NCBI GenBank assembly: GCA_035542015.1
Contig: DATKMF010000136.1
Span: 89 to 64,088, forward strand
DNA length: 64,000 bases
Reading direction: 5' to 3'
Origin: Candidatus Cybelea sp.
Lineage (GTDB): Bacteria > Pseudomonadota > Alphaproteobacteria > Dongiales > Dongiaceae
This document shows positions 18,879 to 45,598 of this stretch, piece after piece (positions within the stretch are counted from its first letter, which is position 1; each line of letters starts with the position of its first letter). The translations under genes and the position numbers were made by a program. The notes below the pieces were generated by a model. It ran no database searches. It had not been told where the DNA came from and worked only from the letters and a program-made list of their open reading frames with translations.

Positions 18879-20333
18879 TTAAGCCGCCAGCAGCGTCTTC
18901 AAGAACTGATCGACGTCTTCCTTGAGCCGCTGCGAGAGGGCGAGGAGGCCACGTGCGGCTTCCGATACTTGCTCGGCCGACTGGCCGGTCTCCTCGGCCG
19001 AGACGCGCACGGTCTCGATCACGCCCGAGGTCTCCACCGTATCGCGCGAGACGTTCTGCGCGCTCTGCGCGATCTCACGGGTCGCCGCGTTCTGCTGATC
19101 GACCGAGGCGTTGATGGTGGCGACCACCTCGCTCACCTGGCCGATGGTTGTCGAGACCGACTGAATGGCATCGACCGATTCGCGTGTCGCACCCTGGATC
19201 GCCGACACCTGGGAGGAGATCTCCTCGGTCGCCTTGGCGGTCTGGTTGGCAAGCGACTTCACCTCGTTGGCGACCACCGCGAAGCCCTTGCCGGCATCGC
19301 CGGCGCGGGCCGCCTCGATGGTCGCGTTCAAGGCGAGCAGGTTGGTCTGGGACGCGATCTCGTTGATGAGACGCACGATGTCGCCGATCTTCTGTGCCGC
19401 CTCGGTCAGCTCGCGCACCTTGGCGCTGCTGGCGCCGGCCTCCTGCACCGCGCGCGCGGTGATCTCGGTCGAGCGCTGCACCTGGCGCTGGATCTCGGCG
19501 ACCGAGGCCGATAGCTCCTCGGCCGCGGCGGCGATCGACTGCGCATTGCCGGTCGTGGCGTTGGAGGAGTTGGCGGCGACACCGACCCGGCCCGCATTGT
19601 CGCGTGCCGCGCGCGCCATGGTTCCGGCGAGCGCCGCGGCGCGGTCGGAATCCGTGGTCACCTCCTCGATCAGCGTGCGGACAGCGCGCTCGAAATTGCC
19701 GGCGACCTCGCCCAGCATGCGCTGCCGGTCGGCGCGCGCCGAGGCTTCGTGGCGCTGGATCTCGTCGGCGAGACCCTGGGCCTTCTTGCTCGCCGCCTCG
19801 GCCGCACCGACCGCGGTCTCCGAGTTGAGCAGTGCATTCGCCATGTGGTGCGAGATCCAGATCAGCACGCCCGCCTCGATCAGCACGATCACGGCATGGA
19901 TGACGACGCGGAAGAAGTCGCCACCATTGGGGAACACCGCCCCGGGCAGCACGAAGTTGAGGGTGAGGTGGTGGACCGCGACCGTCGCGGTCGCGATCAG
20001 GATCACCGGCCAGTCGCAGAACGCCGTCAGCATGGCGAGCGAGGCGAAGAAGTACATATGCATGTCGATCTGCCAGGGATGCCCGTCGAGCACCGCCACG
20101 AGAGTCGCCACGGTCAGCATCATCGCCGCGCCCAGGAAATAGCGCAGCGCCGGCCCCTTGGCGGCGAAGGTCATGGCCCCGGTCGCAAGGGCGAGCACGG
20201 CCCCGATCCCGGTCAGCACGCCGGGGCTGCCCTGGCGTATCCATTCGAGCCCGAGGACCAGCGGGAAGTGGGCACAGATATAGATGCCAAGCCACCGCGC
20301 GGTCTTGGCGCGGAGGGATTCGACGGCGTTCAT
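18879..20333 (-). CDS. Methyl-accepting chemotaxis protein with multi-TM, His-rich N-terminal domain
   Basis: [31 protein letters not shown]; N-terminal ~160 aa is mostly TM. Confidence 0.95.
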
Positions 20334-28737: not shown

Positions 28738-28765
28738 CAGGGGAATGCTGCCAGGGGAATGCTGC
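28738..28765 (+). repeat. 14-bp tandem duplication spanning the chpT ribosome-binding region
   Basis: CAGGGGAATGCTGC x2 directly before ATG 28766. Confidence 0.85.
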
Positions 28766-29401
28766 ATGGCACTCGATCTCCAGATCCTCGAACTCGCCTG
28801 TTCACGGCTCTGCCACGACCTGATCAGCCCGATCGGCGCGGTCGGAAACGGACTGGAGCTGATGGCAGAGGAGGGTGATGACGAACTGCTGGCCGATGCG
28901 CATCGCCTGGTCGAGAGCAGCGCCCGCCGCGCCTCGGCACTGCTCCAGCTCTACCGCTCGGCCTATGGCAATGCCGGCAACCAGGCCGCTTTCGGACTTG
29001 CCGAGGCGGCGCGCCTGGTTCGGGAATCGATTGATGGCGGGCGCATCGAGCTTCGGGCGGATCTGCCGGCGGATACCGCCTGGCCGCGCGGGTTTGGCAA
29101 GCTTGCGGTCAACGCCATGCTGACGGCGATGGAATGGCTGCCGCGCGGCGGCATTTTGTCACTCGCCGCCACCGTTTCCGGCGACCGCGGTGAGCTCAAG
29201 GTGGCGGTCGAGGGCCAGCAAGCCGCGTTTTCCGACGAAACGGCGCGCCTGATCAGGCTCGATCGTCAGGGGATCGAGCTCACCGCCCACAACATCCAAC
29301 CCTATCTGACCGGCCTGATCGCAGCCCATCACGGCTATCGGCTCGATGCGTCGCAACCCGCTGCCGGAACGGCGGTTTTGGCCGCGCGTCCGGCGGCCTG
29401 A
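28766..29401 (+). CDS. chpT: Histidine phosphotransferase ChpT
   Basis: CSRLCHDLISPIGA..NGLEL, LPRGG; near ctrA. Confidence 0.93.
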   Translation: MALDLQILELACSRLCHDLISPIGAVGNGLELMAEEGDDELLADAHRLVESSARRASALLQLYRSAYGNAGNQAAFGLAEAARLVRESIDGGRIELRADLPADTAWPRGFGKLAVNAMLTAMEWLPRGGILSLAATVSGDRGELKVAVEGQQAAFSDETARLIRLDRQGIELTAHNIQPYLTGLIAAHHGYRLDASQPAAGTAVLAARPAA

Positions 29402-29551: not shown

Positions 29552-32500
29552 ATGGACGATCTGCTTAAGGAATTCCTGACCGAGACCTCGGAGAACCTTG
29601 CCGTTCTCGACCTCGAGCTCGTCAAGCTCGAGCAGAACCCCAACGATATGGAGTTGCTGGGGAACATCTTCCGGCTGGTTCACACGGTCAAGGGCACCTG
29701 CGGGTTCCTCGGGCTGTCGCGCCTGGAATCAGTGGCGCATGCCGGCGAGAACGTGCTCGGCAAGGTGCGCGACGGCGAGATCGAGGTCGGTGCCGAAGCC
29801 GTCTCCCTCATCCTCGAATGCCTGGATCGGATCCGCACCGTGATGGCGGATCTGGAAGCGACCGGCTCCGAGCCCGCGGGTGACGACACCGACCTCATCA
29901 AGCGCCTCAACGCCTTCGCGGAGAGCGGCGGCGCCAGTGCCAGCGCTCCCAAGGCGGCGGCGCCCGTGGCCACTTCCGTGGCCGTTCAGGCTCCATCCTC
30001 TCCTGCGGCGGCCGAGCTGCCGGAGAGCACGGCCTCGATCTACGAGCAGGTCGGCGGCATGGGAACCATCGACGCCATCGTCGAGGTCCTGTTCAACCGC
30101 ATGACCGGCGATCTCCGCCTGAAGCAGGCTTTCGACGGCGCCAGTATCGATCACTTGCAGGGCCAGATGCGCGACTATCTCGCCAAGCTCTGCGGCGGTC
30201 CGGATTCGAGCGCCAAGTCGGTCTTGGGCGAGCGCGGCTTCAACGACGCGCAGTTCGATGCGGCCTGCGGTCACCTTCAGGCGGCGCTCAATCAGCTCGA
30301 GGTCTCCCCCAATCTCGCGGCCCGCGTGATGGGCATGATCTTCGCGACCCGCGACGAAGCGACCGCTGGTGCCGCCGCTGCGGCGCCGGCGGCGACCGAG
30401 GAGCCCGCGGTCGAAGCGGCGCATACGGCCGAACCGGCGCACGCCGAGGCGGCGCCGAAGCCCGCCAAGCCTGCGGCCAAGAAGGAAGGCGGCGAGGCCG
30501 AAACGAAGGAATCCGCCGTCGCCAACCAGACCATCCGGGTCAACGTCGAGTTGCTCGAGAACCTGATGACCATGGTCAGCGAGCTGGTGCTGACCCGCAA
30601 TCAGGTGCTGCAGATCCTGCGCAAGCAGAAGGACAGCGAGTTCGCGGCGCCGCTACAGCGACTGAACCACGTCACCTCCGAGCTGCAGGAAGGGGTGATG
30701 AAGACCCGCATGCAGCCGATCGGCAATGCCTGGGCCAAGCTGCCGCGCCTGGTTCGCGATCTCTCGCACGAATTGAAGAAGAAGATCGATCTCGTGATGA
30801 TCGGTCAGGAGACCGAGCTCGACCGCCAGGTCCTCGAGATGATCAAGGACCCGCTGACGCATATGGTGCGCAATTCCGGCGACCACGGGCTCGAGACGCC
30901 GGAGGAGCGGCGCCGCGCCGGCAAGCCGGAGACCGGCAAGATCACCTTGAACGCCTATCACGAGGGCGGCCACATCGTCATCGAGATCTCCGACGACGGC
31001 AAAGGCCTGCCGATGGAGAAGATCAAGACCAAGATCATCCAGAACGGGCTCGCCAGCGAGTCCGAGCTGGAGAACATGAGCGATCAGCAGATCCAGCAGT
31101 ATATCTGGAAGGCCGGCTTCTCGACCGCGACCAAGGTCACCAGCGTCTCCGGACGCGGCGTCGGCATGGACGTGGTGAAGACCAATATCGAGAAGATCGG
31201 CGGCACGGTCGAGCTGCGCTCGATCGAGGGCAAGGGCACGACCTTCTCGATCAAGATCCCGCTGACCCTCGCCATCGTCTCGGCGCTTATCGTCGAGTGT
31301 GCCGGCGAGCGCTTCGCCATCCCGCAGATCAGCGTCGTCGAGCTGGTGCGCGCCACGGCGAACGGCGAGCTGAGGGTTGAAAAGATCAAAGACACGCCGG
31401 TCCTTCGCCTCAGGAACAAGCTGCTGCCCCTGGTGTCATTGCGGGCCAAGCTGGAGCTCGACGAGGGCAAGGAGCTGAGCGACGACACGTTCATCGTCGT
31501 CACCCAGGTCGGCACCTACAATTTCGGCATCATGGTGGACCGGGTGTTCGACACCGAGGAAATCGTGGTGAAGCCGGTGGCGCCGATCCTGCGCCATATC
31601 TCAATGTTCTCCGGCAACACCATCCTCGGCGACGGTTCGGTGATCATGATCCTCGATCCCAACGGCATTGCCGAGGCTTCGGGCCAGATGGGCATCACCG
31701 ACGGCGAAGCAGCCGAGCACAGGGAGGGGAGGTTGCGCGGGAAGGGCGACGAGACGGTACCGCTGCTTCTCTTCCGCACCGGTTCCGGCGTGCCGATGGC
31801 CGTGCCGCTGGCGCTGGTAGCGCGCCTCGAGGAGCTCGAGCGCAAGACCATCGAGCGCTCCAACGAGCGCTGGGTCGTCCAGTATCGCGGCCAGCTGATG
31901 CCGCTCATCCCGATGAGCATGGAGCAGGACAGCGGTATGTCGAAGGAGGGCCGCCAGCCGGTGCTGGTGTTCTCCGACCGCGACCACACGATGGGCCTGA
32001 TGGTGGACGAGATCGTCGATATCGTCGAGGCGAAGCTCAACGTCGATCTGGCGGCCGAGCAGCCGGGCCGCATCGGCAGCGCCATCATCGCCGGCCAGGC
32101 GACCGAGATCGTCGATGCCGGCTACTACCTGAGCCAGGCCTTCAAGGATTGGTTCGGCTCGGTCCAGGAGGACGCGGTCGACACCGGCAAGAGCCGCCGC
32201 GTGCTGCTGGTGGACGACAGTGCCTTCTTCCGCAATCTGCTGGCTCCGCAGCTCACCGCCGCCGGCTTCCAGGTGATCGCGGTCGATGCCGCCGACAAGG
32301 CGCTGGCGCTGTGCGAGGCGGGCGACGAGTTCGACCTCATCATCAGCGACATCGAGATGCCGGGCATGAACGGGTTCGAGTTCTGCGAGACGGTGAAGAA
32401 GAACGCCCGCTGGCAGGCGACGCCGATCATCGCGTTGTCGTCGCGCGCCAGCCCCAAGGATATCGCGCGCGGCCGCCAGGTCGGCTTCGACGATTATGTG

Positions 32501-32572
32501 GCGAAATACGACCGTGACGGCCTGGTTCACACCATGAACGAAGCGCTTTCCGAGCTGAGAGGTGCCGCATGA
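29552..32572 (+). CDS. cheA: Hybrid chemotaxis kinase CheA (Hpt, globin-like insert, dimerisation, HATPase, 2x CheW, REC)
   Basis: FRLVHTVKG, IRVNV, HMVRNSGDHG, GFST..VSGRGVGMDVV, C-terminal DDS...DIEMP. Confidence 0.97.
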   Translation: MDDLLKEFLTETSENLAVLDLELVKLEQNPNDMELLGNIFRLVHTVKGTCGFLGLSRLESVAHAGENVLGKVRDGEIEVGAEAVSLILECLDRIRTVMADLEATGSEPAGDDTDLIKRLNAFAESGGASASAPKAAAPVATSVAVQAPSSPAAAELPESTASIYEQVGGMGTIDAIVEVLFNRMTGDLRLKQAFDGASIDHLQGQMRDYLAKLCGGPDSSAKSVLGERGFNDAQFDAACGHLQAALNQLEVSPNLAARVMGMIFATRDEATAGAAAAAPAATEEPAVEAAHTAEPAHAEAAPKPAKPAAKKEGGEAETKESAVANQTIRVNVELLENLMTMVSELVLTRNQVLQILRKQKDSEFAAPLQRLNHVTSELQEGVMKTRMQPIGNAWAKLPRLVRDLSHELKKKIDLVMIGQETELDRQVLEMIKDPLTHMVRNSGDHGLETPEERRRAGKPETGKITLNAYHEGGHIVIEISDDGKGLPMEKIKTKIIQNGLASESELENMSDQQIQQYIWKAGFSTATKVTSVSGRGVGMDVVKTNIEKIGGTVELRSIEGKGTTFSIKIPLTLAIVSALIVECAGERFAIPQISVVELVRATANGELRVEKIKDTPVLRLRNKLLPLVSLRAKLELDEGKELSDDTFIVVTQVGTYNFGIMVDRVFDTEEIVVKPVAPILRHISMFSGNTILGDGSVIMILDPNGIAEASGQMGITDGEAAEHREGRLRGKGDETVPLLLFRTGSGVPMAVPLALVARLEELERKTIERSNERWVVQYRGQLMPLIPMSMEQDSGMSKEGRQPVLVFSDRDHTMGLMVDEIVDIVEAKLNVDLAAEQPGRIGSAIIAGQATEIVDAGYYLSQAFKDWFGSVQEDAVDTGKSRRVLLVDDSAFFRNLLAPQLTAAGFQVIAVDAADKALALCEAGDEFDLIISDIEMPGMNGFEFCETVKKNARWQATPIIALSSRASPKDIARGRQVGFDDYVAKYDRDGLVHTMNEALSELRGAA

Positions 32573-33087
32573 GCAGGAGCAAGGACATGGAAACCGAGTT
32601 GACCGGCGCCCAGGCAAGCACGGGGGTCGCCAGCGCGGGGTCGGGCGAGCAGCGCGACTATGTCACCATGTCGATCGGCGGCCAGCTGTTCGGCATTCCG
32701 GTTCTCAAGGTGCAGGACGTACTGGGTCCCCAGACCATCACCCGCGTGCCGCTGGCACCGGTCGAGGTGGCTGGCTCGTTGAATCTGCGCGGCCGGATCG
32801 TCACCGCCGTCGATGTCCGTCTCCGCCTCGGTCTGCCCAAGCGCGACAGCGGCAAGCAGGCGATGTCGGTCGTGGTCGAGCACGAGGGCGAGCTTTACAG
32901 CCTGCTGGTCGATAGCGTCGGCGAGGTTCTGAGGCTGGAGAGCCGGGACTATCAGCGAAATCCACCTACCCTTAATCCGCGGTTGCGCGAGTTCTCGGAC
33001 GGGATATATCGTCTGAACGATTCCCTGCTGGTGGTTCTCAGCGTCTCTTCGCTGCTGAACTTCGGCAACCGGGCGGACGCCGCCTGA
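32569..33087 (+). CDS. cheW: Chemotaxis coupling protein CheW
   Basis: ITRVP....GSLNLRGRIV, LLVDSVGEV. Confidence 0.95.
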   Translation: MSRSKDMETELTGAQASTGVASAGSGEQRDYVTMSIGGQLFGIPVLKVQDVLGPQTITRVPLAPVEVAGSLNLRGRIVTAVDVRLRLGLPKRDSGKQAMSVVVEHEGELYSLLVDSVGEVLRLESRDYQRNPPTLNPRLREFSDGIYRLNDSLLVVLSVSSLLNFGNRADAA

Positions 33088-33183
33088 CCATAGGGGTGCT
33101 GCGGGCGCCGTGAGGCGCTTCCGCGGCAAGTGAGGGCCGCGGCGGGGATCAGCCGCGCCCGAACGGCAGACGGAGCTGCTGTC

Positions 33184-33549
33184 ATGAAGTCGTGCCTGAT
33201 CGTCGATGATTCCAAGGTCGTGCGCATGGTGGCCCGCAAGATCATCGAGGGCTTGAACTTCGCGATCGAGGAAGCCGACAACGGCCAGACCGCGATGGAC
33301 CAGTGCCTGAGGCGGATGCCGGATGCGATCCTGCTCGACTGGAACATGCCGGTGATGAGCGGGATCGACTTCCTGCGCAGTCTTCGTCAGATGCCTGGCG
33401 GGCAGACCCCGGTCGTCGTGTTCTGCACCACCGAGAACGACATCCAGCACATCCAGGAGGCGATCAGCGCGGGCGCCAACGAATACATCATGAAGCCCTT
33501 CGACAGCGAGATCATCGAGTCGAAGTTCAGCCAAGTCGGTTTGATTTAA
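33184..33549 (+). CDS. cheY: Chemotaxis response regulator CheY
   Basis: Single REC domain: DDS, LDWNMP, CTTE, YIMKPF. Confidence 0.93.
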   Translation: MKSCLIVDDSKVVRMVARKIIEGLNFAIEEADNGQTAMDQCLRRMPDAILLDWNMPVMSGIDFLRSLRQMPGGQTPVVVFCTTENDIQHIQEAISAGANEYIMKPFDSEIIESKFSQVGLI

Positions 33550-33573: not shown

Positions 33574-34719
33574 ATGCGGCCAGAGACCAACACAGCAGTC
33601 TCCGCCGGTGGCGGACCATATCGGGTCATGGTCGTCGATGACTCGGCGGTGATTCGCGGGCTCCTTACCAAGACGCTCGAATCCGATGCCGAGATCAAGG
33701 TCTCGGCAACGGTCGCCAACGGCCAGGCGGCGATCGACACCCTGAAGCGGACCGACATCGACGTCGTCGTGCTCGATATCGAGATGCCGGTCATGGACGG
33801 GCTGACCGCGCTGCCGAAGCTGTTGGAGGCGAAGCCCGGCGTCCAGGTCATCATGGCCTCGACCCTCACCCTGAAAGGCGCCTCCGTCAGCATGAAGGCG
33901 CTCTCGTTGGGCGCCGCCGACTACCTCCCCAAGCCAACCACCACGACCGGACTCAGCAGTGCCTCCGATTTCAAGCGGGATTTGATCGAGAAGGTGAAGA
34001 GCTGGGGCGCGGTCGCGAGGAAGAAGCGCGGCCTGCCGCCGGGCAGCGCGGCGGCGGCGGGCAGCACTGCCCCCGCGGCACCGAAGAAGCTCTATCCCGG
34101 CGAGGTGAAGCTGCGCCCGGCCCCGGTCATCGCGGGCCGCATCGACTGCCTCGCGATCGGCTCCTCGACCGGTGGACCGCAGGCACTGTTCGCCGTGTTC
34201 CGCGCCTTGGGGCGGGTCGAGCGCATGCCGGTCTTCGTCACCCAGCACATGCCCGCCACCTTCACCACCATCCTCGCCGAGCATCTCGGCCAGGCCTCCG
34301 GCATGCCGGCCGCCGAGGCGAAGGATGGCGAGACCGTGGTCCCCGGCCGGATCTACGTGGCGCCAGGCGATTTCCATATGACGGTCGAGAGTCAGGGCAC
34401 CGGCATGGTGGTCCGGCTCAACAAGAATCCGCCGGAAAACTTCTGCCGGCCGGCGGTCGACCCGATGTTGCGCTCGATCGCCAAGGCCTATGGCGCGCGC
34501 ACGCTGTTTGTCATGCTGACCGGGATGGGGCAGGATGGGCTCAAAGGGGCGCGGGATATCGTCGCCGCGGGAAGCACCGTGATCGCTCAGGATGAAGCCA
34601 CCAGCGTCGTCTGGGGCATGCCGGGCGCGGTCGCTACGGCCGGGCTCTGCACCGCGGTGCTGCCGCTCCCCGAGATCGGTCCGCACGTGAAGAAGGCGCT
34701 CTTGAGGAGCGCCGCATGA
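33574..34719 (+). CDS. cheB: Chemotaxis methylesterase CheB
   Basis: REC domain plus GSSTGGP, QHMP, TGMGQDG, VVWGMP. Confidence 0.97.
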   Translation: MRPETNTAVSAGGGPYRVMVVDDSAVIRGLLTKTLESDAEIKVSATVANGQAAIDTLKRTDIDVVVLDIEMPVMDGLTALPKLLEAKPGVQVIMASTLTLKGASVSMKALSLGAADYLPKPTTTTGLSSASDFKRDLIEKVKSWGAVARKKRGLPPGSAAAAGSTAPAAPKKLYPGEVKLRPAPVIAGRIDCLAIGSSTGGPQALFAVFRALGRVERMPVFVTQHMPATFTTILAEHLGQASGMPAAEAKDGETVVPGRIYVAPGDFHMTVESQGTGMVVRLNKNPPENFCRPAVDPMLRSIAKAYGARTLFVMLTGMGQDGLKGARDIVAAGSTVIAQDEATSVVWGMPGAVATAGLCTAVLPLPEIGPHVKKALLRSAA

Positions 34720-35564
34720 CCGTCACCGATTTCGACTTCATCTGCCAGATCCTGAAGCAGCGCTCCGGCCTGGTGCTCGGCAACGATAAGGCTTATCTGC
34801 TGGAGAGCAGGCTCCTGCCGGTCGCGCGCAAGTATCGCCTCGCCTCGTTCGAGGACTTGGTGCGGCTCATCCGCAGCAAGAACGAGGAGGCGGTGATCAA
34901 AGACGTGGTCGAGGCGATGACCACGAACGAGTCCTTCTTCTTCCGCGACACCAAGCCGTTCGACCAGTTCAAGCAGATCGTGCTGCCGACCATGATGGCG
35001 GCGCGGCCCTCGAAGCAGATCCGCATCTGGAGTGCTGCCTGCTCGAGCGGACAGGAACCCTATTCGCTCGCCATGATCCTCTCCGAGATGGCGTCCCAGC
35101 TCGCCGGCTGGAAGATCGAGATCCTCGGCACCGATCTCTCGACCGAGATCCTCGACCGGGCCAAGGAGGGCGTCTATTCGCAGTTCGAGGCACAGCGCGG
35201 CCTGCCGATCACGCTGCTGGTGAAATATTTCACCCAAGTTGGCGATCGCTGGCAGATCAGCCAGAAGATCCGCAGCATGGTGCAGTACCGCGAGTTCAAT
35301 CTGCTCAACGACCCGCGCGCGCTCGGCAAGTTCGATGTCGTGTTCTGTCGCAACGTGCTCATCTATTTCGATCAGCCGATGAAGGGAAAGATCCTGAACG
35401 GCATCGCCGGCCTGATGCCGGATGACGGGTTCCTCTTCTTGGGCGGCGCCGAGACCGTGCTCGGCATCACCGACAAGTTCCAGCTGATGTCCGGCCAGCG
35501 CGGCGTCTACTGCCTGGCCCATGCCGCGGCAAAGCCCGCCGCATCCGTCCGCGCCAAGGCGTAA
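34716..35564 (+). CDS. cheR: Chemotaxis methyltransferase CheR
   Basis: TTNESFFFRD, WSAACSSGQEPYS, CRNVLIYF. Confidence 0.97.
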   Translation: MTVTDFDFICQILKQRSGLVLGNDKAYLLESRLLPVARKYRLASFEDLVRLIRSKNEEAVIKDVVEAMTTNESFFFRDTKPFDQFKQIVLPTMMAARPSKQIRIWSAACSSGQEPYSLAMILSEMASQLAGWKIEILGTDLSTEILDRAKEGVYSQFEAQRGLPITLLVKYFTQVGDRWQISQKIRSMVQYREFNLLNDPRALGKFDVVFCRNVLIYFDQPMKGKILNGIAGLMPDDGFLFLGGAETVLGITDKFQLMSGQRGVYCLAHAAAKPAASVRAKA

Positions 35565-36610: not shown

Positions 36611-38029
36611 GTGATCAAGAGCTTGGAACCATTGCTGCGGGACCTAACCCGCGTGCCGGACGTGACGGTGTACGGCAAGGTCGTCGCCATCCTCGGCATG
36701 CTGGTCGAGATCGCCGGCCTCGATGACGTTCTCTCGATCGGCTCCCGCTGCGACCTCATGGACCGGAACGGCAACCGCGTCCCGAGCGAAATCGTCGGTT
36801 TCCGTGACGGCCGGGCCCTCGCCATGTCCTTCGGGTCGTTGGACGGGGTCGGGCTCGGCAGCCGCGCGATGCTGACCCATGATGAACCGGTGGTGCGGCC
36901 CAGCGCCGCCTGGCTCGGCCGGGTCGTGAACGCCTTGGGGCAGCCGATCGACGGCAAGGGACCGCTGCCCAATGGTTCCGTCGCCTGCCGGATCCGCAAT
37001 TCGCCGCCTCCGGCGCATCTCCGCAGCCGGGTCGGCGGCAAGATCGATCTCGGCGTGCGCTCGATCAACACCTTCACGACAGTTTGCCGCGGCCAGCGGC
37101 TCGGCATCTTCGCCGCCTCCGGCATCGGCAAGTCGGTGCTGCTCTCGATGATGGCGCGCTACACCTCGCTCGACGTCAACGTGATCGGCCTGGTCGGCGA
37201 GCGCGGGCGCGAGGTGCAAGAATTCATCGAGGACGAGCTCGGTCCCGAGGGCCTCGCGCGCAGCGTGGTGGTGATCGCGACCTCGGATGAATCGCCGTTG
37301 CTCCGGCGCCAGGCGGCGCAGCTGACCCTCGCCGTCGCCGAATACTTCCGCGACGAAGGCAGGCACGTCCTCTGCCTCATGGATTCGGTCACCCGCTTCG
37401 CCATGGCGCTGCGCGAGATCGGGCTCTCCGCCGGAGAGCCGCCCGCCAGCAAAGGCTACACGCCCTCGGTCTTCGCCGGCCTGCCGCGGCTCTTGGAGCG
37501 CGCCGGCCCGGGCGTCACCGGATCGGGCAGCATCACCGGTCTCTTCACCGTGCTCGTCGAGGGTGACGACCACGACGAGCCGATCGCCGATGCCTGCCGC
37601 GGCATCCTCGACGGCCATATCGTGCTCGAGCGCTCGATCGCCGAGCGCGGTCGCTATCCGGCGGTCAACGTGCTGCGTTCGCTCTCGCGCACCATGCCGA
37701 ACTGCAACACCGAGCCGCAGAACGACATGATCCGCATCGCGCGGCAGAACATGTCGGTCTACGACGACATGGCGGAGTTGATCCGGCTCGGCGCCTATCG
37801 CCGAGGCACCGATGCCGCGGTCGACCGCGCGGTCGAGCTCCGCGCCGATCTCGAGCGCTTCCTCTCGCAGCAGAAGAACGAGCGCTCCGATCTCGAGACC
37901 GGCTATCGCGAGCTGGCGGCGATCCTCGGCCTCACCTATGAGCCGGCGGACGGGAAGGCCCAGGGGACGACCCAGGGGACGACCCGGGGGACGACCCAGG
38001 GGACGACCCAAGGGAAGGTTGGGGCATGA
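36611..38029 (+). CDS. fliI: Flagellar export ATPase FliI
   Basis: GIFAASGIGKS, GERGREV, MDSVTRFA, LLERAG, GILDGHI. Confidence 0.97.
   Translation: MIKSLEPLLRDLTRVPDVTVYGKVVAILGMLVEIAGLDDVLSIGSRCDLMDRNGNRVPSEIVGFRDGRALAMSFGSLDGVGLGSRAMLTHDEPVVRPSAAWLGRVVNALGQPIDGKGPLPNGSVACRIRNSPPPAHLRSRVGGKIDLGVRSINTFTTVCRGQRLGIFAASGIGKSVLLSMMARYTSLDVNVIGLVGERGREVQEFIEDELGPEGLARSVVVIATSDESPLLRRQAAQLTLAVAEYFRDEGRHVLCLMDSVTRFAMALREIGLSAGEPPASKGYTPSVFAGLPRLLERAGPGVTGSGSITGLFTVLVEGDDHDEPIADACRGILDGHIVLERSIAERGRYPAVNVLRSLSRTMPNCNTEPQNDMIRIARQNMSVYDDMAELIRLGAYRRGTDAAVDRAVELRADLERFLSQQKNERSDLETGYRELAAILGLTYEPADGKAQGTTQGTTRGTTQGTTQGKVGA
37959..38013 (+). repeat. 12-bp tandem repeat (about 4.5 units) in the 3' end of fliI
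   Basis: CCCAGGGGACGA units encoding GTTQ/GTTR. Confidence 0.9.
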
Positions 38030-41496: not shown

Positions 41497-42336
41497 TCAG
41501 TTTCCCTGGCGCGCCTGCGGCGCTGCCTCGCCGCCGGTCACTTCGAGGAGTCGGCGCGCCAGCGCTTCGACATCCTGCGCCGCCGGGCTGTTCGGGTGCC
41601 GCACCAGGAGCGGCGTCTGGGTGGAGATGCTGTCGCGCACCTTGGGATCGCGGCGGATCACGCCGACCAGAGGGATACGCCGCTTCAGGAAGCGGTCGCA
41701 GGCCTTGGCCAGCGTCTCATAGGTCCGTTGCCCGATCTCGCGGCTCGCCGCCATGTTGACCGTGACGCCGAGCGGCGTCTCGCGGCTCTGCTCGCTGGCG
41801 TCGAGCGTGAGCATTTTGATCAGGGCGTAAGCATCGGTCAGCGCGGTCGGTTCGTCTGTCGTGACCACGAGGCAATAGGCGGCGCGGCCGGCGAGATAGC
41901 GCACCGGGCGCTCGATGCCGGCGCCGAGATCGACCACCACGCGTCCGTAGGAGCCGCTGACCGCGCGCAGGCCCGCGGCAAGCCCTTGCAACCGGTTGAT
42001 CGGCATCGCGGCGAGGCTTCCCGATCCTGAACGCCCCGCGATCAAGTCGAAGCCGCCGCTCGGATAGGAGATGACCGCGCGGCTGAGCGGCATATGGCGT
42101 TCCAGCGCGGTTCCGAGATCCATCGAGGGCTGGATGCCGAGTTGCACATCGATATTGGCAAGGCCGAGATCGCCGTCGAACAGCAGCACCCGCTCGCCCA
42201 GCTTGGCCAGGGCCTGGGCCAGCGAGATGCTGAGCCAGGTCTTGCCGACGCCACCCTTGCCGGAGGCGACCGCGATCACATTGGGGATAGGGTCATCCGT
42301 CGGCGCCGCGGCCGCGCGGATGCTGGTCTCACTCAT
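41497..42336 (-). CDS. flhG: FlhG/FleN MinD-type ATPase
   Basis: SGKGGVGKT, DGDLGLAN, DLGAG, EPTALTDAYA; follows flhF. Confidence 0.9.
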   Translation of the reverse strand: MSETSIRAAAAPTDDPIPNVIAVASGKGGVGKTWLSISLAQALAKLGERVLLFDGDLGLANIDVQLGIQPSMDLGTALERHMPLSRAVISYPSGGFDLIAGRSGSGSLAAMPINRLQGLAAGLRAVSGSYGRVVVDLGAGIERPVRYLAGRAAYCLVVTTDEPTALTDAYALIKMLTLDASEQSRETPLGVTVNMAASREIGQRTYETLAKACDRFLKRRIPLVGVIRRDPKVRDSISTQTPLLVRHPNSPAAQDVEALARRLLEVTGGEAAPQARQGN

Positions 42337-43442
42337 GTTCTTGATCCTACCGGTCGCTTGCGGGTCCCGCCGGTGTTGCGGCCGGGATCCGGCCTTCGTC
42401 TTGCGCCCCCGTCGACTGGGCTCTTGTCGGCAGATCCCCTGTCGACGGACGCCCGGTCGACGGCCTCTCTGTCGACTCGTGCGGTCTCGTCATTCTGCCC
42501 GGGTTTTGGCGCGGCCGCCATCTCCTGGGGCATCAGCAGCCGGGCGAGGGCGTCGGCGCCGAACGCCATCAGCCCGCTGCCGATCTCCGGCGAGATGCCA
42601 AACTCGGCGAAGCCGAGCTTGCCGGCTTCGGCCGCCGCGAGCACCCCGCCATAGCGCCGCGCCGCGTCGATTCGGGTCGCGATCAGACGCTGACAGCCGA
42701 GCTCGGCGAAGAGTTGGCCCTGCTCGGCGGATTCGGAGACATCGCCGCCTGCGGCCAGGGTGAGGATCGGCTCGGCCTTGCTGGCGGCGGCGAACTCGCC
42801 CAGGGCGGCGAGGTCTTCCTGCTTCAAGGGATTGCTGCCGGCGGTGTCGATCAGTACGACCGCACCTTCCGGCGCCGCGGCGATGGCGCGCCTAAGGGTG
42901 GCCGCGTTACGCGCCTGGTAGGCGGTGATCCCCATGGCCTTGGCATAGGTCGCGAGCTGGTCGATGCCGCCCGCCTTGGCGAGGTCGCAGGTGACGGCGA
43001 CCACCGGCCATTTCGCCGCCTTGGCGCCGGCCGCGAGCTTGGCGAGGGTCGCGGTCTTCCCGGCGCCGGGCAGCCCCACCAACATCACCGGCCGCTCCGG
43101 CCTCCGCGCGAGGATCGGGCTGTAGGCGAAACGCGCGCGCAAGGCGGCGCCCAGCGCTTGGCGCGGATTCTCCAGCAGGAAGTTCTCTGCGAGGTGCATC
43201 AGCCGTTCCATCAAGAGCTCCGGCACGCGGTGGAAATCCAGCGCACCGGCGATCGAATCCATCGGCTCCGGCGCCAGCAGGGGCGCCGGTTCCAGCATCG
43301 CCGCGCGGTCGAGCGCCGCGGTGATCTTCACCGTCTTGCCCGCGGTCTCGGTGTTGAGGATCACCGCGTCGGGTCCAAGCTCGTCGCGCACGAGGCGGAT
43401 CGCCTCGCTCATATTGGCCGCGCTGAAGGTCCTAAGACGCAT
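42333..43442 (-). CDS. flhF: SRP-family GTPase FlhF
   Basis: MRLRTF.A..M.EA...VR.ELG.DAVIL, GAGKT, DTAG, TRID. Confidence 0.9.
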   Translation of the reverse strand: MRLRTFSAANMSEAIRLVRDELGPDAVILNTETAGKTVKITAALDRAAMLEPAPLLAPEPMDSIAGALDFHRVPELLMERLMHLAENFLLENPRQALGAALRARFAYSPILARRPERPVMLVGLPGAGKTATLAKLAAGAKAAKWPVVAVTCDLAKAGGIDQLATYAKAMGITAYQARNAATLRRAIAAAPEGAVVLIDTAGSNPLKQEDLAALGEFAAASKAEPILTLAAGGDVSESAEQGQLFAELGCQRLIATRIDAARRYGGVLAAAEAGKLGFAEFGISPEIGSGLMAFGADALARLLMPQEMAAAPKPGQNDETARVDREAVDRASVDRGSADKSPVDGGARRRPDPGRNTGGTRKRPVGSRT

Positions 43443-43462
43443 AGAGCTTCAAAGCCGCGTGA

Positions 43463-45598
43463 TCAGATCTGCCCCAGCGTGCGGATCTTCGCCTTCGCGT
43501 GGATCTCGTTCTGCGACATCACCATGGTGGTCGAGCGGAACCGCTCCACGATCGAACGTACGAAGGGCCGGATGCCGGGGCTGGTCAGCAGCACAGGCGT
43601 CTCGCCCATGATGGCGAAGCGCTCGAAGGTCTGGCGCACCGACTGAATGAACTGCTGCAGCTGCGTGGGCGCCATCACCAGATGACGCTCCTCGCCCTCG
43701 CCCTGGATCGCGTCCTGGAAGGCCTGCTCCCATTCCGGCGAAAGGGTGAGGAGAGGGATGACGCCGCCGCTGTCGGCCGCGGAATCCGAAAGCTGGCGCG
43801 CCAATCTGGCACGCACGTGCTCGACGATCGAGGTGATGTTGCGGGAATAGCCGCAGGCCTCGGAGACGCCTTCGAGCACGTTCGGCAGGTCGCGGATCGA
43901 GACCCGCTCGCCGAGCAGGTGCTGCAGCACGCGCTGCACGCCGCCGACCGAGATCTGGCTGGGGATCAAGTCCGCCACCAGCTTCTGGTGCTCCTTCGGG
44001 AGTTCGTCGAGCAGCTTCTGGGTCTCCGCATGCGACAGCAGCTCGGACATGTTGTCCTTGACGATCTCCGTCAAGTGCGTGGTGATCACGGTCGAGGGAT
44101 CGACCACGGTATAGCCGCGGAACAGCGCTTCCTCCCGAGCGCTGGGATCGACCCACATGGCGGGGAGGCCGAAGGCGGGCTCGGTCGTCTCCTCGCCGGG
44201 CATGCCGATCTTGTCGCCCCGCGGGTCCATCACCATGATCATGTTCGGCCGCAAGTCGCCGCGGCCGGCCTCGATCTCCTTCACCCGCACGATGTAGGAA
44301 TTGGCGTTGATCTGCAGGTTGTCCTGGATGCGGACCGCCGGGAGGATGAAGCCCATCTCGCCGGCGAGCTGGCGCCGAAGCGCCTTGATCTGGTCGGTGA
44401 GGCGATGGCCGCGCTCGGTGTTGATGAGGCCCAAGAGGCCATAACCGAGCTCCAGCCGGATCGCGTCGATGGTCAGTGCGGTCGAGATCGGCTCGTCCAG
44501 CACCGGCGCCGCCGCCTCTTTCTTCTTCGCCTGCTGGGTAGCCACCTGCACCGCCTTCTTCTGCTGCCGCGTGATCAGGAAGGCCGCGGTGCCGGCGAGC
44601 GCCGACAGGGAGAGGAAGGGGACGGCCGGGATGCCGGGCAGGACCGCGATCACCGCCATCAGGAAGGCGGCGAGGCCGAGCGCCGTCGGATAGCCGGAGA
44701 GCTGCCGGAACAGCATCTTGTCGGTCGAGCCGATCATGCCGGCCTTGGTGACCAGCATGCCGGCGGCGGTCGAGACGATGAGCGCCGGGATCTGCGTCAC
44801 CAGGCCGTCGCCGACCGTCAGCAAGGTGTAGGACTTGGCGGCATCGCTGATCGAGAGGCCCTGCTGCACGACGCCGATGATGATGCCGCCGATGATGTTG
44901 ATGAACACGATGACGAGGCCGGCGATCGCGTCGCCGCGCACGAACTTGGCGGCGCCGTCCATGGCGCCGAAGAAGTTGCTCTCGTCCTCCAGCTGCTTGC
45001 GCCTGGCGCGCGCCTCGGCTTCGTCGATCAGCCCGGCGGAGAGATCGGCATCGACCGCCATCTGCTTGCCGGGCATCGCGTCCAGGCTGAACCTGGCGCT
45101 GACCTCGGCGATGCGGCCCGAGCCCTTGGTGATGACTACGAAGTTGACCAAGGCCAGGATCGCGAACACGATCAGGCCGATCACGTAATTGCCGCCCATG
45201 ATGAAGCCGCCGAAGGCCTGGATCACATGGCCGGCGGCGTCGGTCCCCTCATGGCCGTGGGTCAAGATCAGCCGCGTCGAGGCGAGGTTCAGCGACAGAC
45301 GCAGCATGGTCACGATCAGGAGGACCGTGGGGAAGGTGGAGAAATCGAGCGGTCGCTCGATCAGCAGCACCACCATCAGGATGAGGACGGCGAAGGTCAG
45401 CGAGCAGGCGAGCGAGATGTCGAGCAGCCAGGGCGGCAGCGGCAGGATGAGGACGGTCAGCACCGCCATCAGGCCCAGCGCCAGCAGGATCTCGCCGCGG
45501 CGCAGCAGCCCGGTCACGCGGCTGAGGTTGAAGCCGGCCGCTGCGGCGCCGGCCTGTTGTTGCGCCGGTGCCGCGGCCGCCGCGTTGGTGTCGGTCAT
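43463..45598 (-). CDS. flhA: Flagellar export gate protein FlhA
   Basis: RIAEVSARFSLDAMPGKQM, GAMDGAAKFVRGDA, GDGLVTQIP. Confidence 0.98.
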   Translation of the reverse strand: MTDTNAAAAAPAQQQAGAAAAGFNLSRVTGLLRRGEILLALGLMAVLTVLILPLPPWLLDISLACSLTFAVLILMVVLLIERPLDFSTFPTVLLIVTMLRLSLNLASTRLILTHGHEGTDAAGHVIQAFGGFIMGGNYVIGLIVFAILALVNFVVITKGSGRIAEVSARFSLDAMPGKQMAVDADLSAGLIDEAEARARRKQLEDESNFFGAMDGAAKFVRGDAIAGLVIVFINIIGGIIIGVVQQGLSISDAAKSYTLLTVGDGLVTQIPALIVSTAAGMLVTKAGMIGSTDKMLFRQLSGYPTALGLAAFLMAVIAVLPGIPAVPFLSLSALAGTAAFLITRQQKKAVQVATQQAKKKEAAAPVLDEPISTALTIDAIRLELGYGLLGLINTERGHRLTDQIKALRRQLAGEMGFILPAVRIQDNLQINANSYIVRVKEIEAGRGDLRPNMIMVMDPRGDKIGMPGEETTEPAFGLPAMWVDPSAREEALFRGYTVVDPSTVITTHLTEIVKDNMSELLSHAETQKLLDELPKEHQKLVADLIPSQISVGGVQRVLQHLLGERVSIRDLPNVLEGVSEACGYSRNITSIVEHVRARLARQLSDSAADSGGVIPLLTLSPEWEQAFQDAIQGEGEERHLVMAPTQLQQFIQSVRQTFERFAIMGETPVLLTSPGIRPFVRSIVERFRSTTMVMSQNEIHAKAKIRTLGQI

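Follow-up and report, generated by a model that had tools for sequence, protein, structure and literature searches.

A truncated-haemoglobin-like domain without proximal histidine inside the chemotaxis kinase CheA of a Dongia-related alphaproteobacterium

Globins in bacterial chemotaxis and two-component signalling are known from globin-coupled sensors (GCS) like HemAT, AfGcHK and DosC and from a predicted methyl-accepting chemotaxis protein (MCP) of Corallococcus, which combines PAS and Bac_globin (PMC6194562). A 2026 review on aerotaxis mentions globins only as N-terminal globin-coupled receptors and as this predicted PAS-globin MCP. For globins of the T family, bacterial chimeric proteins were listed only for the groups II and III in a 2020 review (PMC7475203). 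The kinase CheA was described in a 2023 survey of its architectures as having no sensor domain of its own, with P2, REC and CheC/CheX as the only auxiliary domains, and P2 is missing from over half of all CheAs (PMC10782961). Here, a 64,000-nucleotide stretch of DNA from Candidatus Cybelea sp. (contig DATKMF010000136.1, positions 89 to 64,088 of the forward strand), referred to as the window, was analyzed. Its gene cheA (29552..32572, + strand; all coordinates are those of the window) codes for a kinase of 1006 amino acids carrying a domain with the fold of a group-I truncated haemoglobin (trHbN) between P1 and P3, in which the proximal histidine is missing. The closest named relatives of this CheA belong to Dongia (Dongiaceae, Rhodospirillales). 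The source assembly is a metagenome-assembled genome with a completeness of 87% and an estimated contamination of 3.5%, and the window sequence is also contained in wetland metagenomes.

Truncated haemoglobins and CheA kinases are each known, and their combination was not found described in the searchable papers, so that it appears to be a new one. No paper on a truncated haemoglobin combined with CheA was found among open-access papers and preprints, in line with an initial annotation of the window, made from the sequence alone, which knew of no described globin-CheA fusion. The terms 'globin', 'PF01152' and 'Dongia' are absent from the text and the supplements of the CheA survey (PMC10782961). 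In the databases, globin-bearing CheAs are annotated as 'chemotaxis protein CheW' or 'CheA'. A globin in CheA contradicts the standard statement that this kinase is devoid of a sensor domain and relies on chemoreceptors, and the exception is a common one, concerning about 50 genomes of the Dongiaceae and at least 14 further alphaproteobacterial families. It also extends the bacterial record of T-family chimeras, so far restricted to groups II and III (PMC7475203), to group I.

Sequence and structure comparisons show that residues 162 to 270 (30035..30361, + strand) form a folded domain which descends from a group-I truncated haemoglobin. The Pfam family Bac_globin (PF01152, cut-off 21 bits) matches these residues with an E-value of 1e-8 and 35.8 bits in the search with the whole protein, and with an E-value of 1e-10 and 42.1 bits in the search with the segment alone. 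In a phmmer search against the PDB sequences, HbN of Mycobacterium tuberculosis ranked first (E 1.7e-12), ahead of further truncated haemoglobins of group I. NCBIfam holds no model for the globin segment, the Pfam models for P2 and CheY-binding domains gave no match at E ≤ 1 to either the whole protein or the segment, and Protoglobin (PF11563) remained below its threshold on the window CheA (15.8 bits, cut-off 25). Both Gly-Gly hinge motifs are present (G168-G169 and G215-G216-P217) and invariant or nearly so among the relatives, as is the phenylalanine at CD1 (Phe194), which is nearly invariant. The motif of the G helix reads G240-H241-L242, with G240 and H241 being invariant in 21 aligned relatives and the position of L242 being occupied by leucine, isoleucine, methionine or alanine.

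The AlphaFold2 (AF2) model of the domain, which was built from a 72-row alignment of family genomes and stand-alone relatives, reaches a predicted local distance difference test (pLDDT) value of 92 and a predicted template modelling (pTM) score of 0.85. It is all-alpha and follows the helix pattern of a 2-on-2 globin. The best Foldseek matches are HbN structures (TM score 0.87, root mean square deviation (rmsd) of 1.9 Å over 115 columns). VIA-align, which is independent of Foldseek, yielded Z-scores of 17.2-17.6 against group-I truncated haemoglobins (rmsd 1.5-2.4 Å, 110-114 residues aligned), about 14 against group II, 12.5 against group III and about 8 against 3/3 globins. The Z-scores against the sensor globins HemAT, GsGCS, AfGcHK, BpeGReg and DosC range from 6.8 to 7.5 (1or4, 2w31, 5ohe) and from 8.1 to 8.6 (4uiq and DosC 4zva), and those against the non-haem globin of RsbR (2bnl, 7b0u) from 6.7 to 6.9. 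The initial annotation had placed a globin-like segment between two linkers after the Hpt domain, starting at residue 162 (30035), and had recognized in it the group-I (2/2) pattern with both GG motifs, the CD1 phenylalanine and the HL of the G helix. The profile search and the structure prediction which it had proposed as checks, together with Foldseek and VIA-align, agree with this assignment.

The domain shares the 2-on-2 fold, the GG hinges, Phe CD1 and the GHL motif with the group-I truncated haemoglobins HbN (1idr) and those of Paramecium (1dlw/1uvy), Tetrahymena (3aq5) and Chlamydomonas (1dly), and it aligns along its whole length with the stand-alone trHbNs of the same bacterial family. 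Unlike free truncated haemoglobins of about 120-130 amino acids, it is internal to a kinase, and unlike the group-I proteins it has neither His F8, Tyr B10 nor Gln E11 and shows a deletion of seven residues before helix F. With the GCS and the Corallococcus protein it has in common that a globin fold is part of a chemotaxis or two-component signalling protein, and presumably the ancestral logic was also the same, i.e., a haem ligand would control the output of a kinase. However, the globin of the GCS is a 3/3 globin of the S family at the N-terminus, whereas the window globin is a 2/2 globin of the T family and lies internally, behind P1. In addition, HemAT and the Corallococcus protein are receptors upstream of CheA, whereas here the globin is located in CheA itself.

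The globin is flanked by two linkers which are predicted to be disordered. Linker 1 (residues 126-161, 29927..30034, + strand) is rich in alanine, proline and serine, and linker 2 (residues 271-322, 30362..30517, + strand) in alanine, proline, glutamate and lysine. The former differs in length and sequence between relatives and the latter is very variable. In the AF2 model of the full-length protein, residues 128-159 and 273-335 have pLDDT values below 50, and within the first 330 residues only P1 and the globin are ordered. As this model is too poor for inter-domain contacts (mean pLDDT 54.5, pTM 0.26, globin part 69-85), it was used only for the disorder of the linkers. Based on these models, the globin is predicted to be a folded bead on a flexible tether between P1 and P3.

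The junctions of the globin are not an assembly artefact, since two wetland metagenome contigs are identical to the window across them (29755-30585 and 29755-30424, reaching from P1 through the globin into linker 2), although the runs of both contigs may be the source sample itself. A contig of run X2, which skips 29931-30371, was considered as a globin-less allele and rejected. Beyond the skipped part it matches over only 24 letters, its similarity is about 90%, and it is read as the linker of another organism. As to transcription, RNA runs contain only small shares of the sequence words of the window, and the pieces assembled from them are conserved kinase parts of relatives.

The P2 domain of classical CheA has an alpha/beta fold. 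It is likewise located between P1 and P3 with flexible linkers on both sides, and in this topological sense the globin occupies the P2 position, as the initial annotation had put it. A docking role is conceivable. However, the window domain is all-alpha and has no P2 match in Pfam, and the globin-less orthologues are also devoid of P2. In ten other alphaproteobacterial families, globin-less CheA-REC orthologues are 64-71% identical to the window protein from P3 to REC and nearly identical in P1. Their P1 and P3 are connected by a disordered Ala/Pro/Glu linker of 85-125 residues, in which neither a globin (phmmer, E ≤ 10) nor a P2 was found. Since nothing but a plain Ala/Pro stretch is present in these orthologues, the globin entered a linker that had no P2, and did not take the place of one.

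Two traits of group-I truncated haemoglobins, the proximal His F8 and the network of Tyr B10 and Gln E11, are absent in the window domain. Between G216 and H241 there is no histidine at all. HMMER pairs the stretch 'ksvLgergf' with 'kqvHqgrgi' of HbN, preceded by a gap of four residues, and thereby aligns Leu225 (TTG, 30224..30226, + strand) to His81 (F8) of M. tuberculosis HbN. Leu225 is part of a one-turn helix of the domain model (model residues 69-71, protein residues 225-227). On this alignment, the initial annotation is right in taking Leu225 for the F8 residue and the EF loop for about four residues shorter. The family alignment, however, assigns F8 differently. The spacing between F8 and the invariant phenylalanine at G5 (Phe235) amounts to 13 residues in the stand-alone trHbNs of the same bacterial family and in those His-bearing CheA globins which are 55-65% identical to the window domain, and to 10 in HbN. 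Because the relatives keep these 13 residues, Lys222 (AAG, 30215..30217, + strand) is the positional homologue of His F8, and in comparison with the relatives exactly seven residues of the pre-F loop between the GGP hinge and F8 are cleanly deleted. Thus the missing histidine was noted correctly, and the residue in its place and the length of the deletion had to be revised. On the distal side, B10 is Phe181 instead of the canonical tyrosine, as had been noted before, and E11 is Met206 instead of glutamine, so that the hydrogen-bond donors are lost.

The order to which the source genome belongs is represented by one family, of which 83 genomes (Dongiaceae) were searched. The globin was found inside frames of about 1000 amino acids in about 50 of them, spread over nine genera; the count for genus g10 includes one unpublished genome (G067), which enters into this count alone. 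Of the genomes lacking a match, five were inspected: four possess no CheA at all at E ≤ 1e-30, and the CheA of the fifth is truncated at a contig end. Within the Dongia-like genus of the window (g1), 19 of 23 genomes contain the globin. Of the four others, one has a CheA running off its contig, one is without CheA and two are 81-82% complete. The CheA of Dongia sp. agr-C8 is 89% identical to the window protein over the whole length, and the cultured Dongia species with such close orthologues make the system experimentally tractable.

A tree of the CheA core was calculated from 577 columns, leaving out the globin and the linkers, and was rooted on ten globin-less orthologues. On this tree, His F8, which is also found in the stand-alone trHbNs, is kept in the genera g8, g9, g16 and g17. 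It is replaced by lysine in g10, by valine in g4, by glutamine in g13 and g6, and by lysine, threonine or proline in the window genus, which corresponds to at least five independent losses within the Dongiaceae. The survey of orthologues for the insert and its F8 residue, which the initial annotation had suggested, hence revealed a widespread domain with a repeatedly lost ligand. The codons at F8 are compatible with a path from CAY (His) via CAG (Gln) to AAG (Lys). In the window genus, the F region reads SAKSVL, GSTSPL, TAPHPL or NTPNPL, with an adjacent histidine or asparagine in one subclade, and no potential haem ligand in this region is conserved even within the genus. Tyr B10 is kept only in g6, g13, g16 and g17 and Gln E11 only in g4, g13, g16 and g17. 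As g16 and g17 retain all three pocket residues, these two genera look like having ordinary haem pockets, and the CheA pockets of the other Dongiaceae are degraded to varying degrees.

Two loci of this survey are irregular. The CheA of locus L005 (G030:C140) is chimeric: the part from P1 through the globin and P3 to the middle of P4 resembles the window genus (83-100% identical to the window protein), and from about residue 480 on the protein is 100% identical to a g10 kinase through P5 (480-699) and 89% identical in 700-780. Most probably, two sequences were joined within the conserved P4 region during assembly. At locus L015 (G023:C54) of the window genus, the CheA frame ends at a TAA just after the globin, so that either the gene is disrupted or the sequence contains an error.

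The globin is under purifying selection, which is looser than that on the catalytic parts of the kinase and equally strong with and without the histidine. The ratio of nonsynonymous to synonymous substitutions (dN/dS, pairwise Nei-Gojobori) of the globin is 0.20 in the window clade, 0.26 in the whole His-less genus and 0.26 in the His-bearing genera g8 and g9, compared to 0.05-0.09 for P1 and 0.10-0.13 for P3-P4. The stretch before and in helix F (residues 218-231) shows a dN/dS of about 0.7 in the His-less as well as in the His-bearing groups. Furthermore, 27 globin columns are invariant over 21 relatives, the identity of which goes down to 48% in the globin region. Many of these columns are charged (D174, E178, R183, D187, R189, K191, D200, R207 and R267; B, C and E helices). 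Of the observations which the initial annotation had named as speaking against its proposal, neither a segment failing to model as a 2/2 globin nor a domain decaying without conservation was found. Since the ligand was lost at least five times and the domain is nevertheless under selection, its role in the kinase seems not to need canonical haem ligation. The window protein is an informative degenerate case in this respect.

A profile search of 401 alphaproteobacterial genomes, followed by domain mapping, uncovered the layout P1-globin-P3-P4-P5(-P5)-REC in at least 25 further genomes from at least 14 other families. This overturned the assumption of a Dongiaceae-specific insertion in the ancestor of the family. 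Outside the Dongiaceae, most CheA globins have the complete set of His F8, Tyr B10 and Gln E11, and judging from its pocket this majority probably binds haem; some of these globins are hardly distinct from free trHbNs. In five further lineages F8 was lost, being replaced by phenylalanine (two), leucine (two) and isoleucine (one). The canonical-pocket CheA globins of other families share the layout and the orthologous core (64-71% identical) with the window protein and in several cases the ChpT-like gene upstream, and differ from it by having His F8, Tyr B10 and Gln E11. The window CheA is not a singular case. CheAs with an embedded globin constitute a large family spread widely over the Alphaproteobacteria, of which the window protein is a degenerate member and the other members mostly retain these three residues.

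On the core tree, kinases with and without a globin are intermixed. In a tree of the domain itself (124 columns, weakly resolved), the divergent CheA globins group together, and the canonical ones are found among stand-alone, CheW-fused and MCP-fused trHbNs. The distribution may go back to one old insertion and many deletions or to several insertions.

Further fusions were observed in these searches. Three CheAs from other alphaproteobacterial families (L078, G445:C32; L080, G302:C12; L097, G141:C1) carry, in addition to the globin between P1 and P3, a second one between the two CheW-like (P5) domains. In a library of protein representatives, trHbNs with an intact pocket, including His F8 and Tyr B10, were found at the C-terminus of CheW (P0120, P0122, P0170) and at either end of cytoplasmic chemoreceptors (P0098, P0123, P0112). 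As it is fused to CheA, CheW and MCPs, the trHbN fold has been recruited repeatedly into chemotaxis proteins. At the top of the representative search were proteins with up to 13 tandem trHbN-like stretches, like P0047 (1882 aa), P0050 (1386 aa) and P0052 (1120 aa).

On balance, we cautiously favour the reading that the window globin is a haem-independent regulatory or docking module, the ancestral haem-sensing input of which was lost. In the canonical members, the O2, nitric oxide (NO) or redox state of a bound haem would change the conformation or the contacts of the tethered globin, which would bias the access of P1 to P4 or to response regulators and provide the kinase with an input bypassing the chemoreceptors. 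If the canonical forms do bind haem, aerotaxis or NO/redox taxis would in this way gain an input in the kinase itself. In the window genus, canonical haem ligation has been abolished by the loss of seven residues before helix F together with the substitution of His F8; the haem input would be lost in the window protein, and the domain would persist in the tether between P1 and P3 as a bead whose regulatory or docking function does not depend on haem. The conserved charged surface of all Dongiaceae forms suggests a contact with another domain of CheA, with CheY, CheB or the ChpT-like neighbour. As a functional analogy we would favour the sensor globin of the stressosome protein RsbR, a precedent for a globin fold which takes part in signalling without haem, although RsbR belongs to the 3/3 sensor-globin lineage and another pathway and resembles the window domain only remotely in structure (Z 6.7-6.9).

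Several points weigh against this reading. The docking or regulatory partner is purely inferred, with the full-length model being too poor for contacts. The hydrophobic residues of the pocket are kept (Phe181, Phe194, Phe235, Leu202, Met206 and Leu242), no bulky substitutions filling the cavity were seen and G8 is small (Ala238), so that a ligand, possibly haem, could still bind. The presence of lysine in the F8 column of two independent lineages, the window clade and g10, could mean selection for an alternative ligand. In addition, AF2 models carry no cofactor, and the holo and the apo form are indistinguishable by AF2. The three options considered by the initial annotation, i.e., a haem-less pseudo-globin, a globin with alternative ligation and a thiol sensor, are thus all still live hypotheses, albeit of different probability.

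A further-reaching proposal, which we consider possible and hold only tentatively, is that those CheAs which contain a truncated haemoglobin make up a large and hitherto unrecognised class of chemotaxis kinases, receiving a sensory input themselves and bypassing the receptors. The Dongia form would have been re-tooled to sense a thiol oxidant via Cys214 and Cys239, a hydrophobic ligand in the old pocket or haem via Lys222, and the genera of the Dongiaceae would represent a natural series leading from a haem sensor to a new sensor.

It seems unlikely that haem or another tetrapyrrole is still bound via a ligand other than histidine (Lys222, Cys) or without any axial ligand from the protein, and that the domain thereby feeds gas or redox signals into CheA. 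The conserved and unfilled hydrophobic pocket would fit this explanation, as would the independent occurrence of lysine at F8 in g10 and at seven loci of the window clade (one of them the chimeric L005) and a predicted fold almost unchanged from haem-bound trHbN. The Chlamydomonas THB1 structures 4xdi and 6cii were among the fold matches of Foldseek, and ligation of the iron by a lysine is known on the distal side of this protein. However, a column occupied by lysine, threonine or proline in one genus, in a stretch with a dN/dS of about 0.7, is unlike that of a conserved axial ligand. Moreover, seven of the 11 residues from the GGP hinge to F8 are deleted and the distal hydrogen-bond donors at B10 and E11 are gone.

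We give still less weight to a thiol redox switch, in which the two cysteines of the domain, already pointed out in the initial annotation and acquired or fixed in the His-less genus, would be linked reversibly by a disulfide or react with an oxidant or NO, thereby reshaping the domain and the activity of CheA. Cys214 (topologically at E19, immediately preceding the GGP hinge; 30191..30193, + strand) is a cysteine in all aligned members of the window genus. Cys239 (topological position G9; 30266..30268, + strand) is conserved in all but one of them, is an alanine in nearly all His-bearing Dongiaceae and is thus found together with the shortened loop and the missing histidine. Both cysteines are therefore kept in essentially every member of the genus. 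However, Cys214 is also found in most of the His-bearing g8 (with no cysteine in this column in g9, g10, g16 and g17), the exceptional member of the genus (L010) has a serine at position 239, and buried cysteines of helices are often mere packing residues.

That the domain is a functionless relic, i.e., a former haem sensor which now serves as an inert spacer and is heading for deletion, is very improbable, since repeated loss of the haem ligand, closely related CheAs which manage with a plain linker and the interleaving on the core tree, which fits easy loss, are opposed by a dN/dS of about 0.2 as in the His-bearing genera, the 27 invariant columns, a confidently predicted fold and the retention of the domain in 19 of the 23 genomes of the window genus.

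The window CheA is a flagellar-type hybrid kinase of the CheA-REC type, which consists of P1, linker, globin, linker, P3, P4, P5, a second CheW-like domain and REC according to the list of open reading frames and Pfam. The Pfam families found are Hpt, Bac_globin, H-kinase_dim, HATPase_c, CheW (two stretches) and Response_reg, with the four core domains of CheA (Hpt, H-kinase_dim, HATPase_c and CheW-like) all exceeding their own cut-offs. P1 (residues 1-125, 29552..29926, + strand) contains the phospho-acceptor His44 in the motif HTVKG. It matches Hpt at residues 3-95 (E 1.7e-15), and its helices span residues 2-124 in the full-length model. The dimerisation domain P3 (residues 325-385, 30524..30706, + strand; H-kinase_dim, E 3.1e-16) is followed by the ATP-binding kinase domain P4 (residues 433-572, 30848..31267, + strand; HATPase_c, E 8.5e-18) and by P5 (residues 578-708, 31283..31675, + strand), which is the best CheW stretch (E 6.6e-35). 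The second CheW-like domain has approximate limits (about residues 730-860, 31739..32131, + strand) and shows beta strands at residues 736-854 in the full-length model. The C-terminal REC domain comprises residues 884-992 (32201..32527, + strand; Response_reg, E 5.5e-21).

Downstream of cheA and on the same (+) strand, the genes cheW (32569-33087; CheW), cheY (33130-33549; Response_reg), cheB (33574-34719; CheB_methylest and Response_reg) and cheR (34716-35564; CheR and CheR_N) were identified by Pfam. Genes encoding an MCP, FliI, a MinD/FlhG-like ATPase, an FlhF-like signal recognition particle (SRP) GTPase and FlhA are located around the operon at 18879-20333 (-), 36611-38029 (+) and 41497-45598 (-), with the flagellar export genes (fliI, flhF-like, flhG-like and flhA) lying beyond cheR, and due to their proximity the che operon is assigned to a flagellar cluster.

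In the same assembly, the CheA segment is the only match to Bac_globin. A second CheA of this assembly is located on a contig of 2.3 kb (G000:C247; L054:3-1880, - strand) and is 68% identical to the window protein in P3-P4. Its linker, about 165 residues long, contains no globin and no P2, and the protein could be a paralogue or a contamination.

Finally, a gene for a ChpT-like histidine phosphotransferase (28745..29401, + strand; HPTransfase, PF10090, E 7.5e-21) lies directly upstream of cheA. A homologue of it is found directly upstream of the orthologous cheA in the Dongiaceae and in several other alphaproteobacterial families, in the presence as well as in the absence of the globin. The fact that this gene is kept beside the gene of the CheA-REC kinase suggests a phosphorelay starting from the REC domain of the kinase.

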